From an uncultured Bacteroidales bacterium (GTDB lineage Bacteria; Bacteroidota; Bacteroidia; Bacteroidales; VadinHA17), in assembly GCA_963778605.1 (NCBI GenBank), contig CAVZVF010000001.1, positions 788,097-852,096 on the forward strand: 64,000 bases of DNA, given 5' to 3'. A program made the translations under genes and the position numbers. Under the pieces are notes generated by a model, which was given only the letters and a program-made list of their open reading frames with translations, made no database searches and had not been told where the DNA came from. Shown piece after piece: positions 19,745 to 62,239 of the stretch (the first letter of the stretch is position 1; each line of letters begins with the position of its first letter).

Positions 19745-20820
19745 TTAAGCCTTGAGAGGATTACATCCAAAACCTGCAAGATCCAGCGTGCTAAGTTCAC
19801 CATCAACAAGTGAAAAGCCACCTGTAACAATATCTTCCGCCAGTTCTAAACTGCCATCAAGATCTAAATAGCATGTTGAAGTACATGAGAGTGCTGCATG
19901 CAATGCGGCAGAGATACTCACGACACTTTCATCATAACATCCCCAGAAAAGTTTAATTCCCGAAGCTTGTGCTATCGTAGAAATATCAAATGCTCCAAGC
20001 AACCCTCCACACTTCATAAGCTTAATATTGAATATACCGCAGGCCTGCGGCTCAGCCGCCAGAAACAGAGCTGAACCGGCATTCTTGAGCGACTCATCGC
20101 AGGCAATCATTTTACGTATCCCTGCCGGCAACGACTTCATTTCTGATTCTGTCCCAACCCGCATTGGTTGTTCAACAAGTTCCAATCCTAATGAATTGGT
20201 AGCTTTAAAAAAAGCAATGGTCTGATCCTGGTCATAGCCCTGATTAGCATCAACACGGATTTTAAAATAATTGCCAAATTTTTCTCTTAATTTTACAATC
20301 CGTTCAATATCCTCTTCAGGGTTTAGACCTATTTTTATTTTTAAAACTCTAAAACCCTGATGTTTATATTCTTTAGCTTCCATAAGTGTATCTTCAACAC
20401 TTAATATCCCAATGGTGATTGATGTAGGTAAACTGCGATGCCTCCTGCCGTAAAAATCAACAACAGGAATACCAAGATATTTTCCAAAGGCATCATGTAA
20501 TGAAATGTCAATTGCAGTACGGGTGGCAGAATGTTTCGGAAACAGAGTCTGTGATTCAGCTATAAGGTTTCGAAAATGGCGAATATCTTCTCCCTACCCA
20601 TTTTTGTAATGAGTCAGATTGCAGGTTTGAAATTGTATCTTCCAGTTTTTCTCCGAATACATATTCAGAACGCGGCTGCCGATCCATAGCCGGTAATTCC
20701 GTTTTCCAGCTCAATTTCCAGAAAAGCATTCAGAACTACTGAATTTACTTCATATGCGATAGTGTATGGTTTTTTGAGTTTCAGGTCTTTAGTGTATGCA
20801 CTTATTGTTTTAATTTTCAT
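19745..20820 (-). CDS. Enolase-superfamily dipeptide epimerase/racemase (MLE subgroup), frameshifted in the 5' third
   Basis: KIKIG, RVDANQG, VEQP, DES, NIKLMKCGG and DLDG motifs; N-terminus MKIKTISAYTKDLKLKKPYTIAY read from ATG 20820. Confidence 0.88.
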
Positions 20821-21893
20821 TTTTTAAGGTTTTTAAGAGTCTCAACCATTGATTCTACTCCTTCCTCAAGGGGAAGAATTACCGGAATGCCTAGTTTCTT
20901 TGAATAGGATTCTTTGTATGAAATTGCCTCTTTCGTAGTTAATTTGTTTGTGTTTAACATCAAAGCAATAACTTTCGAACCGTAACAATTGATAAGTTTT
21001 ATTTCGTCTTCGACTGAAGGAATCTCTCCCCATTTTGGATCCGAATCAAAATATTTCCGGATTGGCTGATGTACCAGAACGACGTATTTTGCGTTTCCTG
21101 ATACAAGAAACTCAGATCCGCATGGACCACTCGGGTTTCTGAGAGAGGACTGACCTTCTATAATGATCAGGTCTGGTTTCTCGTTTTTATAGGCATTTAT
21201 GATCGCGTTTGATAATTCGCCGCTGACAAAATCGTTAAGCGTTGAATCCAGAATAAATCCATACCTGGCTCCCTGCATCCATCCTGTTTGTCCTGTATAA
21301 ATCATTTCGGCTTTGAGACCAGCTTTTTCAAAGGCCTGTTTTAACAGCATTGCTGTTGTACGTTTGCCAATGGCACAATCCATTCCCATAACAGCAATAA
21401 CAGGGCATTTCACCTCAAACACCTCTTCCGACCAGAATTTTAAGTCTTTAAAAGTTTTCGGTTTGCGGACATCGATCATTTTTGCACCATATTTATTGGC
21501 CAGTTCGACCATCTCCGGTTGATCATTCAAATGATAGTGTAACCCATTCACCATGGATATTCCTTCAGTTAACACACTTTTAATTACTGCTATAAGATCA
21601 AAAGGTAAAACTCCGCCTACAGTGGCGACACCTATTATGCAATAATCCGGTTTACCTTCTTCTCTGATCGCCTCTTCCAGACTGTGCGAAGACCGGAATA
21701 TTCCTGTTGATGCCGTCTAACTACTTCTCCTGCGTCTTTTCCTGCCGAATATGAATCAATAACAGCTTTAATAATAAAACGGTCGGAGCTTCGGATCAGG
21801 CCATGGGATGTCTTGGCATCCGTCTTATGCAAGCATTCCGCTACTTAATAAAAATGCAGTTCCTCTTATTAAATCAAAATTTTCAATACTCAT
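20817..21893 (-). CDS. DUF1611 family P-loop protein (DgcN-like), frameshifted
   Basis: AKTSHGLIR, NGLH, GMDCAIGKRTT, TGQTGWMQG, DFVSGE and IEGQSSL motifs; overlaps the epimerase start by 4 bp. Confidence 0.85.
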
Positions 21894-21932
21894 TTTATTG
21901 CTATGTTATCTGATCATGAAATATTTATTTAT

Positions 21933-22187
21933 ATGACAATCGGTAATCATGCATAAGACCTCTTTGATTTTGACTTCGTCGAGCTCCGCTTCGCTCCGGT
22001 TCTTCGTTAGCCCCTTACCCTAAAGGGTGCGAAGAACCGAGTCCCGCAGGGCGAGCCCGGCGCAGCCAAAATCAATTACTCCCTCCTCGCCTTCGCGTAG
22101 CCGCTACGGCGGAGCAAGGTTAGGGTCGGGGCAAATAATTGATTTTCAAGCATCAAAATATTTATATGTATGATTTCCGATAGTCAT
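21933..22187. mobile_element. 255-bp MITE/REPIN-like element with imperfect TIRs, interleaved stems and nested hairpin insertions
   Basis: TIR atgacaatcggtaatcatgcata / tatgtatgatttccgatagtcat (20/23); core ttagccccttaccctaaaggg ... ctccct[35 bp]ttagggtcggggcaaa shared with the 48.5 and 62.1 kb elements. Confidence 0.7.
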
Positions 22188-22193
22188 TTTTAT

Positions 22194-24412
22194 TTATTTT
22201 AACCAATCACTGAAAAGATCATAAGGCTTCCCGGTTGATTCCGGCGTTTCAATGATCAATTGTCCGCCGGCATTCTTCGATTTGTAAGAAGTACGGATTA
22301 TTTCAAGATCTTCATTAATGCTTTTCTGGTCAGTTTTTTCACCATTCCCGTCAGTTGTACCGGCCATCATAAGTTTTCTTGGAGCCAGGCTGGCCTCAAG
22401 ATCAGGAAGATCGTAAGCTGTAAGGGCTCCCGGTACAAGGTTCTGTACAAAACCCGGGTAATAAAAGCGGTTCATAACAATTGACCGGTATGAAGAATAA
22501 GGTTCAATAAGTGCTACCCTTGTTATTTGCGGATCAAAAGCTGCAGCATAAAGCATCACCGGTGCCATCTCTTTCTTTGCAAGACCATATACTTCTGTTA
22601 TGCCCGTCCTTTTTTTAAGTAACCGTGTTAACCTGACAATATCACCGGCACGTATTCCCACTATGCTTCTGCCGATAATCATGGACGTATACCAGGTATT
22701 ATAAGAAATACCGCCAATTACTGCATCTCCCTTAAATGTCCCGGAACCCATTTCACCCATTCCGATCAGATCAGGTGCCAGTACCGTCAATCCATTTTTA
22801 ACAAACCATTCAATCTCTCCGCCTTCTGATGCATCGGCTGATTTATCTGAGGCATGCAGATAGATCAGAGATTTGTTATTTGGTTTATCAGGTATCATTA
22901 GCAGGTACGGAATGACATAATTACCTTCACCTTTGACAAAATATTTCTCAACCACATAACCCTCCCTTTGAAAACGCCCTGTGAACACCGGATCCTGAAC
23001 CGTCTGAGGGGCAATGTATCCTGAAAGCTTTTTAGCCGAATTTAATACCCCGGTAAGATATACAGGGAATTTTGCTCTTGACGCCTGTAACTTGCTGACC
23101 ATCTTTTCCGCTTCTTTTCGGTTAAGACTGAAAACAGTCTCTCCACCAAGGGAAGTGGAAAGTTGTCCGGTTGAAGTTTTCTGCAGCTCTTTGGCTGAAG
23201 GGAGATCAACCTGTTTCCTCAACCGGGGAACCCGGTAATTGAAGATGTTTCTGGAAAAATGCATACATGGCTTCCCGATTCTTCTTTGTATATCCGTGCC
23301 CGTTTTCGTCTTCAGTTATTTCGACATTGTCAGGCTTGCCGAATATTGTGTATGCATGTTTCAACTCAGCATAAGTTTCACGTGATCCCTGGATACTGAA
23401 AAAATCTCTTGTGGTAGCCATGATCAGAGTTGGTTTTGGCATCCTCACTTCAATAAAATCTGCATGGTCAATACCCCTGGAAAGCTCATGATAGAAATTT
23501 TGTTCCCCATCCTGAACGCCAATCGATTCGAGGAGCCGGCGATAGCTGGTTATGTAGCCCGCAGGTGCCGATGCCACAACACGGTCATCCAATGCTGAGA
23601 TATATGCAGTCTGTGTACCTCCGCCGGAAAGTCCATGAACACCTATTCTTTTGGGGTCCACCTCTTTCCGGCTTAAAAGGTAGTCGATACCCCTTATACC
23701 GTCCCAGATAAAATATCTTGCAACTGATTTACCAATTAGAAAAACCTGTACAGAAGGATAGGAGTGCTCAAGGGTGGAACTGCCGATTGTTGACTCACCT
23801 TTTACCGGATCAAAATATTGCAGGCGCTCACCCTGACCAATAGGATCAATAGCCAGGACAATAAATCCTTTCATAACCAGGTTTAACAGGGGTTGCTGGT
23901 ATAACTCCAGCCTGTAAACCCCTGTACTGTGTCCGCTGCAGAAAAGAATTGCCTGGTGCCGGCGTTTTTACATTATCCGGAATAAAAAGAGATGCTGTCA
24001 CATAAAAACCCGGGAGCGATTCATAGATGATGTTTTCAATTTTATAACCATTCTTCTTTACGGTTCCTGTGATCTTTGCATTTAAACTTGTTTTTTCAGT
24101 AAAGGGTCCGATTATATCCCACAATGTTTGTTTTACTGACGACTGTCGTTTCTGCCACTCACTCACAGTCTGAAGCTGTTTTATACCTTTAGCCCTTGTA
24201 TCAAGCATTTTAAAAGCTTCACCGGTGAGATAATGATACAACGAGTTGGGAGCATCGGTGTAAAGCAGCCAGTAATTCCTGATTACATCAAGATCATTCT
24301 GCTTCTGGCCATTGACCATGTTATTGGTCAGCAGCAGCAGGAGGAGTACTGCAAAAATTACAGTAAAAAAATTGGATTGCCTTTTGTAGATCTTGTAAAA
24401 TAGCTTTTTCAT
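22194..24412 (-). CDS. Two-domain alpha/beta-hydrolase (acetylxylan esterase-like), split by two frameshifts
   Basis: YESLPGFYVTASLFIP, IDPIGQGERLQY, nucleophile elbow GLSGGG, then a second degenerate hydrolase domain; ORFs 23846, 23206 and 22194. Confidence 0.8.
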
Positions 24413-48361: not shown

Positions 48362-48528
48362 TAAATTACTTTTTACTTGTATTTTTATTAATCACGTTTT
48401 ATACTGAATCCGAAATATATATTTCATTTTTTCAGCAGGTACCTGTCACCTTATTGTTGAGCCAACTGGGCATACCACACCTGTACATTTTCATTTACGT
48501 TATCATCGGTAAATATAATCTTAATCTA

Positions 48529-48673
48529 ATTCTGCTTTGACAGATTAGAAAAATCAACCTGCGTTTGCCCTTAATCCCTAAAGGGAACAGGTTGATTTTT
48601 CAGTTTGCTTCCTTTAGGGTTGGGGCAAACAAACTGAAAAATCGTTGTAAGTTGTAATCTGTCAAAGTAGATC
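48529..48673. mobile_element. 145-bp MITE-like element with interleaved stems (copy 1)
   Basis: TIR tctgctttgacagatta / taatctgtcaaagtaga (16/17), flanked by TA on both sides; near-identical copy at 62082..62225. Confidence 0.85.
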
Positions 48674-48718
48674 TAAATTGTACAAATTTACTAACCTTAT
48701 ATATATGAACCTGAAATT

Positions 48719-62000: not shown

Positions 62001-62081
62001 ATCAAGACTGGAATAATACCAGGTCATTTATTATTACCTGATTTTTTTCGTCTGTTTAATCAATTATTAATGTAATAATTA

Positions 62082-62225
62082 ATTCTACTTTGACAGATTA
62101 GAAAAATCAACCTGTTTTGCCCTTGATCCCTAAAGGGAACAGGTTGATTTTTCAGTTTGCTCCCTTTAGGGTCGGGGCAAACAAACTGAAAAATCGTTGT
62201 AAGATGTAATATGTCAAAGTAGAAT
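62082..62225. mobile_element. 144-bp MITE-like element with interleaved stems (copy 2)
   Basis: TIR attctactttgaca / tgtcaaagtagaat perfect, TA-flanked; about 9 differences from 48529..48673. Confidence 0.85.
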
Positions 62226-62239
62226 TAATATACTTTACT

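Follow-up and report, generated by a model that had tools for sequence, protein, structure and literature searches.

A Bacteroidales miniature transposable element with a widespread double-hairpin module and a probable link to DUF559 nuclease genes

Within a window of 64,000 nucleotides—the whole stretch of DNA that was analysed, positions 788,097 to 852,096 of contig CAVZVF010000001.1 (assembly GCA_963778605.1), from an uncultured Bacteroidales bacterium of the VadinHA17 lineage—we studied a non-coding element of 257 bp at 21932–22188. It belongs to the non-autonomous DNA transposons, as one copy of a miniature inverted-repeat transposable element (MITE), and two elements near 48.5 and 62.1 kb of the same window belong to a second MITE family, with other ends and a 4-bp target-site duplication. 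The core of both families is a pair of inverted stem-loops that share one arm around a GAAAATC/GATTTTC heptamer; this double-hairpin module is real, widespread, and uncatalogued in Rfam. The explanation that we consider probable is that the element is a MITE copy with a phylum-wide double-hairpin module whose loop brackets DUF559 nuclease genes in several Bacteroidota; for the function of the module, our confidence is moderate to low. As a MITE, the element itself is ordinary, but its core is less so: a 22-nt loop conserved across the phylum sits in hairpins whose stems change freely, the core recurs in MITEs with unrelated ends, and the loop is identical to repeats that bracket genes for small Vsr-like nucleases.

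The case for transposition begins with the element's boundaries. Its ends, TATGACAATCGGTAATCATGCATA (21932–21955, plus strand, an end conserved across the family copies compared) and TATGTATGATTTCCGATAGTCATT (22165–22188, minus strand), match at 20 of 24 positions by hand count, and an AT-rich 8-bp direct repeat, TTTATTTA, stands on both sides (21924–21931 and 22189–22196), identified as a target-site duplication from the sequence and from the family-wide test described below. No open reading frame (ORF) of 50 aa or more appears in the ORF list within 21932–22188. An earlier sequence-only reading had bounded the element at 21933–22187 and placed it 6 bp past a minus-strand stop codon; both values shift slightly, as the element is one nucleotide longer at each end and the stop codon of the minus-strand gene at 22194–23264 occupies 22194–22196, inside the right copy of TTTATTTA and 5 bp from the element's end.

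Many further copies are found in the window's own genome (hereafter G000; 5.28 Mb in 34 contigs, 39% G+C, 86% complete). Blastn searches with the window copies as queries recovered 76 loci or fragments of the family of the 21.9-kb element (the long family; 59 near-full, on many contigs) and 43 loci of the family of the 48.5- and 62.1-kb elements (the short family), counts that include some doubles owing to near-duplicate contigs in the assembly. Multi-kb segments are duplicated between contigs at 92–98% identity (for example, G000:C1:1002320-1008338 and C19:1-6015), which suggests that the assembly mixes strains and thus that some MITE copies, such as those at C1:1003461 and C19:1141, are counted twice. 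Aligned ends show that the long family begins TATGACAATCGG and finishes CCGATAGTCATA. Among 61 long-family copies of at least 150 bp, both ends could be located in 50, and these are flanked by AT-rich 8-bp duplications that are perfect in 32 and have at most one mismatch in 44, compared with 2.7% perfect when flanks were swapped between copies. Two lengths predominate in the long family, 222 bp (12 copies) and 257 bp (22 copies). The short family begins TTCTACTTTGACAG, measures 143 bp in 37 of 41 copies, and carries perfect 4-bp duplications, mostly TTAA, CTAA, or TTAG, in 38 of 41; its two copies in the window lie on the plus strand at 48530–48672 (with the duplication CTAA at 48526–48529 and 48673–48676) and 62083–62224 (with TTAA at 62079–62082 and 62225–62228). 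Median identity to the window copies is 94.4% in the long family and 97.1% in the short family.

Terminal inverted repeats together with target-site duplications are footprints of transposition, and both families are thus MITEs, presumably mobilized by different transposases given their different ends and duplication lengths. Four of the five features by which MITEs are recognized were found for the 21.9-kb element: it is small and non-coding, has terminal inverted repeats, is flanked by a duplication of fixed length, and occurs in many dispersed copies. The fifth, an autonomous insertion sequence (IS) with the same ends, was not found in this assembly, which at 86% completeness does not establish absence. 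A search of congeners for the empty insertion site matched only the flanking hydrolase gene, at about 70% identity. Copies are strongly intergenic (57 of 57 in the long family and 40 of 42 in the short family, by crude gene calls that took ORFs of at least 110 aa without overlap in a greedy manner). The sequence-only reading had remarked that the three window elements share one orientation, which is no rule in the genome at large: relative to tandem flanking genes, long-family copies are in the same orientation in 12 cases and the opposite in 23, and short-family copies in 12 and 10. By spacer type, short-family copies are over-represented between divergent genes, on the promoter side (15 of 39), and few lie between convergent ones (2 of 39).

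The interior of the window element, all of it read on the plus strand, is organized around two loops, B and B', and the A and C arms that enclose them. The outer A arm TTGATTTTG (21964–21972), with a GATTTT heptamer-like core that occurs three times in the element, pairs with the outer A' arm CAAAATCAA; next to it lies a GC-rich extension of the left A arm (21973–21996, delimited from sequence, repeat finder, and single-stranded DNA fold), followed by the inner A arm CGGTTCTTCG (21997–22006), which is complementary at 10 of 10 positions to the inner A' arm CGAAGAACCG (22030–22039). Between the inner arms is the B loop TTAGCCCCTTACCCTAAAGGGTG (22007–22029), consisting of a C-run tail and a mini-hairpin CCC-TAAA-GGG, with the B core GCCCCTTACCCTAAAGGG at 22010–22027. 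A second GC-rich extension on the right A' arm (22040–22066, a repeat-finder pair also seen in the single-stranded DNA fold) leads to the shared middle arm (22067–22078), where the outer A' arm (22067–22075) and the C arm AAAATCAATTA (22068–22078) have 22068–22075 in common. The B' loop then begins with CTCCCT (22079–22084), which in copies without the insert reads CTCCCTTTAGGG, is interrupted at the apex of its own mini-hairpin by a 35-nt GC-rich module (22085–22119) that accounts for the two family length classes of 222 and 257 bp, and resumes with TTAGGGTCGGGGCAAA (22120–22135) before the C' arm TAATTGATTTT (22136–22146), complementary to C at 11 of 11 positions. The repeat finder extends the A pair to 23 nt (21964–21986 with 22053–22075, 83% complementary), and the B and B' stem-loops are mutually inverted. 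All of the A, B, and C pairings that the sequence-only reading described, including the overlap of A' with C, are therefore present by direct reading and by repeat finder, as is the shared B/B' core and interleaved layout of the 21.9-kb and 48.5/62.1-kb elements despite their differing ends and stems.

Within the genome, this core belongs almost entirely to the two families. The B' 16-mer, at up to two mismatches, occurs 98 times, of which 96 are inside the two MITE families (41 in the short family, 34 in long-family copies with the 35-nt insert, and 21 in long-family copies without it) and two are apparent chance matches. The sequence-only reading had described the architecture as rebuilt from different sequence; within this genome it was instead inherited by copying, as the copies bear terminal inverted repeats and target-site duplications.

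Across the Bacteroidota, it is the loops that are conserved: the 22-nt sequence CTCCCTTTAGGGTYGGGGCAAA (also written CTCCCTTTAGGGYYGGGGCAAA) and its complement recur throughout the phylum, while the stems around them differ yet still pair, and the two loops are complementary to each other over about 20 nt. A scan with the 20-mer CCCTTTAGGGTYGGGGCAAA, using one genome per species, gave at least 106 stretches, all of whose listed titles are Bacteroidota except for one metagenome-assembled genome labelled Bosea thiooxidans; the carriers listed include Flavobacterium, Chryseobacterium, Epilithonimonas, Maribacter, Lutibacter, Saprospiraceae, Phaeodactylibacter, and various Bacteroidales. Among the matches listed, the 20-mer is typically a hairpin loop whose stem changes between genomes: at least 7 uninterrupted pairs stand directly beside the loop in 66 of the 103 distinct units listed, compared with 5.7% when downstream flanks were swapped, and in 50 distinct units a partner loop with the complementary sequence lies upstream. 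Close doublets, defined by a middle segment no longer than 26 nt, number 33 among those listed; 27 of them keep both stems at 10 or more pairs, compared with 6% when middle segments were swapped, and the interleaved layout thus returns with yet other stems in many Bacteroidota genomes. The middle segments of these 33 doublets comprise 31 distinct sequences, 30 of the 33 segments hold a GAAAATC- or GATTTTC-like heptamer, and arm overlap is seen in most doublets whose middle segment is 25 nt or shorter. The doublet can thus be written x-N-[B]-N'-x'-M-[B']-M'-x, with a single central arm able to pair to the left or to the right, the same feature that appears in the window element as the overlap of A' with C.

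Further support for pairing comes from short-family relatives in other Bacteroidales (L071, L114), where a compensatory stem change, AACCTG/CAGGTT to AACCCG/CGGGTT, is visible by eye. A MAFFT alignment of the 33 doublets did not fall into structural register because stem lengths vary, and stems were instead counted sequence by sequence against the swapped controls. A pair of outer inverted repeats was obtained at 27 of the 38 loci examined, and those scoring 11 or more, grouped by hand, fall into at least seven sequence classes. We set aside a 'TSD plus guide' model, in which flanking direct repeats (the target-site duplication, TSD) pair with the middle segment, because the arm segments beside the two loops are unlike one another.

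The link to nucleases emerged from five genomes picked for loci with several motif copies. In all five, every copy (4–12 per genome, at most one mismatch) lies at a single locus, and in four the copies stand on both sides of an ORF of 129–133 aa that matches Pfam DUF559 (E 6e-36 to 3.6e-33), bearing out in other genomes the co-occurrence with a DUF559 nuclease gene that the sequence-only reading had proposed looking for. The fifth genome (G045; L121:6018-6137) has four tandem 30-nt units, each gaaatytcct plus the loop 20-mer, in which the palindromic gaaatttc serves as both arms of successive hairpins; no DUF559 gene lies alongside these units, and none was detected in G045. DUF559 coding sequence lies within the 300-nt flanks of 6 of the 106 listed motif loci, two of them (L082, L084) outside the five picked genomes. 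The B' sequence of the element reads CCC-TTTA-GGG-TC-GGGGC, split in the window copy by the 35-nt module, and is identical to the DUF559-flanking motif at L117–L120; it fits a provisional 'DUF559-bracketing' motif, in which a C/G mini-hairpin that closes a 4-nt loop is joined by two pyrimidines to a run of G.

Approached from the side of the protein, a profile of four DUF559 sequences found homologues in 141 of 301 sampled Bacteroidota genomes. Among the best 30 loci, 8 have the strict motif pattern on their flanks, and most other stand-alone DUF559 genes are bracketed by analogous repeats in which a C/G-rich mini-hairpin is followed by a G-run tail, for example CCCTCTCC-TTGA-GGAGAGGG-TT-GGGTGAGGTG and CCCCTCC..GGAGGGG. 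An exact inverted repeat of at least 10 nt connects the 200-nt flanks of 17 of 28 stand-alone DUF559 genes, compared with 18% of mismatched upstream/downstream pairs, a control value raised by the motif types that loci have in common. When 30 DUF559 proteins are placed on a maximum-likelihood tree (pseudogene row L143 left out, read-through ORF L146 trimmed to 135 residues), hand-assigned motif types require 10 changes, compared with a shuffled mean of 17.9 and no shuffle of 200 as low, and six of the eight CCCTTTAGGG-type proteins cluster with support of 84/68. Among solved structures, those nearest in sequence are 3HRL (E 2.5e-25) and 3R3P (homing endonuclease domain, labelled mobile intron protein; E 3e-5), and a published classification, which cites both, unites VSR, DUF559, and DUF2726 in one clade of PD-(D/E)XK nucleases (PMC3424549). 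The DUF559 domain also terminates ORFs of about 800–1480 aa in many Bacteroidota (L145, L147, L149, L154, L159, and others); the strict motif was found on the flanks of none of those fetched.

Several observations weigh against the explanation that we prefer. In G000 itself, the exact B core flanks none of the eight DUF559 matches (five of them intact), which have related but different motifs: variants with longer runs, GCCCCCCAACCCCCCTGAAGGGGGG and its complement, stand on either side of G000:C8:14942-15259 and of G000:C33:24141-24458. Between the three tandem DUF559 genes at G000:C16:38500-41700 lie arrays of another unit, 29 nt long (catttggatatttctaccccccaaccctg), and every array finishes in a CCCCCC-AAAT-GGGGGG hairpin. 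The remaining 100 of the 106 listed motif loci have no DUF559 within 300 nt; at an E-value of 1e-10, no DUF559 was found in three (G045, G383, and G384) of five other motif-bearing genomes, whose assembly completeness is not stated, and of the other two, G382 has a single DUF559 gene with other flanks and G385 a DUF559 gene with an internal stop. The clustering of motif types on the protein tree may simply reflect host relatedness, as related hosts share motif labels, and the tree accordingly shows clustering rather than co-evolution. The exact-pattern B' core was recovered in none of 40 relatives (24 congeners and 16 genomes of the same order), a search that missed the copies in congeners because their B' reads differently; a DNA similarity search found diverged long-family copies there at 80–85% identity (L170, L171). 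End-motif scans, inspection of neighbouring ORFs, and a self-BLAST for long repeats brought to light no autonomous element in the assembly with the ends of either family, and the transposase is consequently deduced solely from the repeats and duplications. Lastly, an account in terms of MITEs and modules does not explain the shared arm and its conserved heptamer. The link between motif and nuclease is not obligatory, and dispersed doublets can evidently be maintained where the assembly has no cognate gene, much as MITEs are often found with no IS of their own.

The end-motif scans gave 12 and 9 extra matches outside known copies. The nine end-like matches for the long family correspond to other MITE-like elements or solitary ends, and the ORFs beside solitary short-family end-like matches resemble ordinary genes by eye. 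None of the 24 DDE_Tnp_1 matches in the genome is tied to the ends of either family.

If the element is a MITE copy with a DUF559-associated module, as we prefer, it would move as DNA through a trans-acting DDE-type transposase recognizing the outer repeats, and the loop motif would be the DNA site of a cognate DUF559 nuclease, by analogy with repetitive extragenic palindromes (REP) and their associated tyrosine transposases (RAYT). The double hairpin may have been captured by MITEs with several types of ends, or have inserted at palindrome centres in them, and then been amplified alongside them. In the window copy, GC-rich segments lengthen both arms of the A stem, and the 35-nt module occupies the apex of the mini-hairpin in B'. 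The likeness between the 21.9-kb and the 48.5/62.1-kb elements is thus due to the module that they share and not to convergent rebuilding in this genome.

The interior of the element consists of palindromic modules nested one in another. The 257-bp form differs from the 222-bp form by the 35 nt at 22085–22119, which separate CCCT from TTAGGG where the B' mini-hairpin has its apex, and all 40 genomic copies of this module (at up to five mismatches) lie within the long family. Congeners have a 32-nt core that is nearly identical to it at the tips of other hairpins, of the C-run/G-run or GC-rich kind: the core is present in 10 of 12 congener loci fetched, and in 8 of those 10 it occupies such unrelated hairpins, with settings that include CCCCCCT and CAGGGGGG on either side of the module, or CCTGCCTGCAT and CCGGCAGGCAGG. 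The GC-rich extensions of the A stem (21973–21996 and 22040–22066) are missing where other orders have this family in its simple form (L055, L066, L088, L095) and resemble, by eye, a one-armed insert in L061. The element is therefore a stack of outer repeats, heptamer-bearing stems, a GC-rich stem extension, a loop motif with a mini-hairpin, and an apical module, with a conserved centre inside a variable flanking inverted repeat at two levels. This pattern fits either insertion at hairpin apices or a copying process that makes arms symmetrical, and the apex-nested modules suggest an uncharacterised process of insertion or copying directed by hairpin loops.

A bolder version of these ideas, which we regard as possible though doubtful, is that the Bacteroidota have an undescribed counterpart of the REP–RAYT system, in which small DUF559 nucleases are each bracketed by a cognate mini-hairpin plus G-run motif and these motifs, as the loops of hairpins with variable stems, spread by insertion at the apices of palindromes already present. 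Apex insertion would account for the nested series of MITE, double hairpin, mini-hairpin, and 35-nt module, and for the reappearance of the same interleaved topology with other stems and other outer ends. If nuclease and motif are indeed partners, they would form a second, independent REP-like class built on a PD-(D/E)XK nuclease instead of an HUH transposase, and the motif would supply a testable substrate for DUF559, to our knowledge a large family without a known role. A literature search, with most subscription journals outside its coverage, returned no description of the loop motif, the double hairpin, or repeat-bracketed DUF559 genes.

We also considered whether the double hairpin is instead a structured RNA, cis-regulatory or small, in which the loops kiss or B pairs with B', so that selection acts on RNA and the MITE is a mere vehicle. 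The predicted folds are strong: the window element as single-stranded DNA reaches -53.8 kcal/mol (z = -5.69, with none of 200 shuffles folding as well) and the 62.1-kb element has z = -9.45. In both, the outer repeats close a junction, the A hairpin is tipped by B, and B' falls within another arm; a B:B' helix is not part of the minimum-energy fold of either. Stems that differ between genomes yet pair, and loops that are mutually complementary over about 20 nt, would also suit an RNA. On the other hand, Rfam gave no match on the window at gathering score, and in E-value mode (E up to 10 or up to 1), applied to 21850–22250 and 14 doublet loci from other genomes, it returned sub-threshold noise only. 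Orientation bias is slight (12:10 and 12:23), copies occupy divergent, tandem, and convergent spacers, the unit is nearly two-fold symmetric such that either strand reads alike, and the same motif acts as a duplex inverted repeat around protein genes. Because the near symmetry, the want of a clear orientation bias, and the duplex arrangement around genes favour a role at the DNA level, we consider selection on an RNA improbable and read the element as mobile DNA with nested REP-like modules. The sequence-only reading had pointed to an undescribed family of structured RNA or single-stranded DNA elements; this is upheld in that Rfam has no match and the module is widespread, but the module is not a stand-alone RNA or single-stranded DNA, its copies being products of transposition.

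Equally improbable, in our view, is that the double hairpin is useful cargo, such as a bidirectional terminator, an insulator, or a site for a nucleoid protein, which lowers the cost of MITE insertion, is for that reason kept by MITEs of several end types, and is associated with DUF559 only incidentally. Two-fold symmetry would suit an action independent of orientation, copies lie between genes (one of them 5 bp past a stop codon), and the module occurs within at least seven classes of outer repeat. Yet no T run follows the stems in the window copies as read, the short family favours divergent spacers and is rare in the convergent ones (15 and 2 of 39), and this account leaves unexplained that conservation over the phylum falls on the 22-nt loop and not on the stems.

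Least likely is a REPIN-like doublet moved on single-stranded hairpins by a RAYT or IS200-type Y1 (HUH) transposase: the genome has 15 Y1_Tnp matches (12 strong), the two inverted units have a REPIN-like layout, and one Y1 gene lies inside long-family-like ends, but the B core was not found in the 600 nt around any of the 12 Y1 genes examined (which have distinct hairpin repeats of their own, contrary to the link that the sequence-only reading had raised), and the window element has terminal inverted repeats and target duplications, neither of which HUH Y1 transposition (IS200/IS605) is known to yield.

The MITE copy with its double-hairpin module can be set beside several known systems. Like Correia/NEMIS, ERIC, RUP, Nezha, and similar bacterial MITEs listed in PMC3733652, the two families are 143–257 bp long, non-coding, and intergenic; they number tens of copies, fold into strong hairpins, and bear terminal inverted repeats and target-site duplications. 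They differ from the MITEs described there in that the interior is a conserved double-hairpin module, not a degenerate IS remnant, and in that this module is common to MITEs with unrelated ends and with 8-bp or 4-bp duplications and is found phylum-wide; nor was a parental IS found. REP and REPIN sequences with their RAYT genes (REPtrons) likewise have short hairpin units that occur singly, as inverted doublets, and in clusters (PMC3733652). REPtron-like, too, is the arrangement of a small, single-locus, nuclease-type gene flanked by the units, all of which lie at that locus in most genomes examined and are dispersed in a few. In contrast to REPtrons, the flanked gene encodes a DUF559/Vsr-like PD-(D/E)XK protein in place of an HUH Y1 transposase; conservation rests in the loop and its G-run tail rather than in a stem tagged GTAG/CGTC; and the dispersed copies sit inside elements with terminal repeats and target duplications. 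Of the hallmarks of REPIN/RAYT systems, the window element thus has the inverted doublet, without a RAYT gene flanked by its units and without freedom from terminal repeats and target duplications. The nearest published analogue of the gene-plus-bracket arrangement is the TIRtron, a Y1 gene flanked by inverted repeats, whose gene is an HUH transposase (Di Nocera et al. 2013, PMC3733652).

Two comparisons concern the individual families and proteins. Motif-flanked proteins match DUF559, 3HRL, and 3R3P by sequence and in this respect resemble the Vsr endonuclease and the Vsr-like homing endonuclease I-Bth0305I; in contrast to these, no intron, intein, or methyltransferase context was found at the loci examined, where hairpin repeats bracket the genes instead. 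MITEs derived from the IS5 family have a 4-bp YTAR-type target, and the 4-bp duplication of the 48.5- and 62.1-kb elements, mostly TTAA, CTAA, or TTAG, is alike, a similarity confined to the short family; against it, none of the 24 DDE_Tnp_1 matches is linked to short-family ends.

Several side observations concern Y1 genes and their surroundings in G000. At G000:C7:16910-18228, an element with long-family-like ends (TATGAGYATCGGGAATCAT) contains a 149-aa Y1 transposase gene flanked by cccccggtgcaaccgggggt hairpins, and the copy of that element at C9:189503-192950 additionally encloses a DDE_Tnp_1 match. IS200-like units with a 161-aa Y1 gene occur at G000:C5:20076-20420, C9:177647, C8:26887, C9:209182, C6:24182, and C15:310755; their ends are mostly CATAGCCGTCAAGC...GCTTGACGGCTATG, bracketed by variable GC-rich inverted repeats, and the unit on C5 has B/B'-like brackets, TTGCCCCCCACCCCCCTGAAGGG before it and CCCTTCAGGGGGTTGGGGGGCAAAA after it. 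A further Y1 gene, at G000:C1:359644-359988, lies amid cagccctacgggct hairpin arrays with the look of a classical RAYT/REP locus, unrelated to the B core. Two MITE-like elements (G000:C18:9107-9330 and C9:222300-222568) have long-family-type ends around a different hairpin-plus-run doublet core, ACCCCCATCCCGA-CCTTCCCCCAGGGGGGAAGG ... TTTCCCCTTGGGGGAAA-CGGGAAAGGGGGT. Within the window's genome, ends of the long-family type therefore also enclose another hairpin-plus-G-run core or a Y1 gene.

The genes that adjoin the window element are both on the minus strand. On the right, the gene at 22194–23264 has a marginal Abhydrolase_7 match. On the left, a DUF1611 gene (20817–21832) seems to be split: the ORF at 20817–21575 holds the C-terminal P-loop domain but, of the N domain, no more than the final third, and a 65-aa ORF without a Pfam match lies just upstream at 21635–21832, an arrangement that may reflect a frameshift or a start-site problem.

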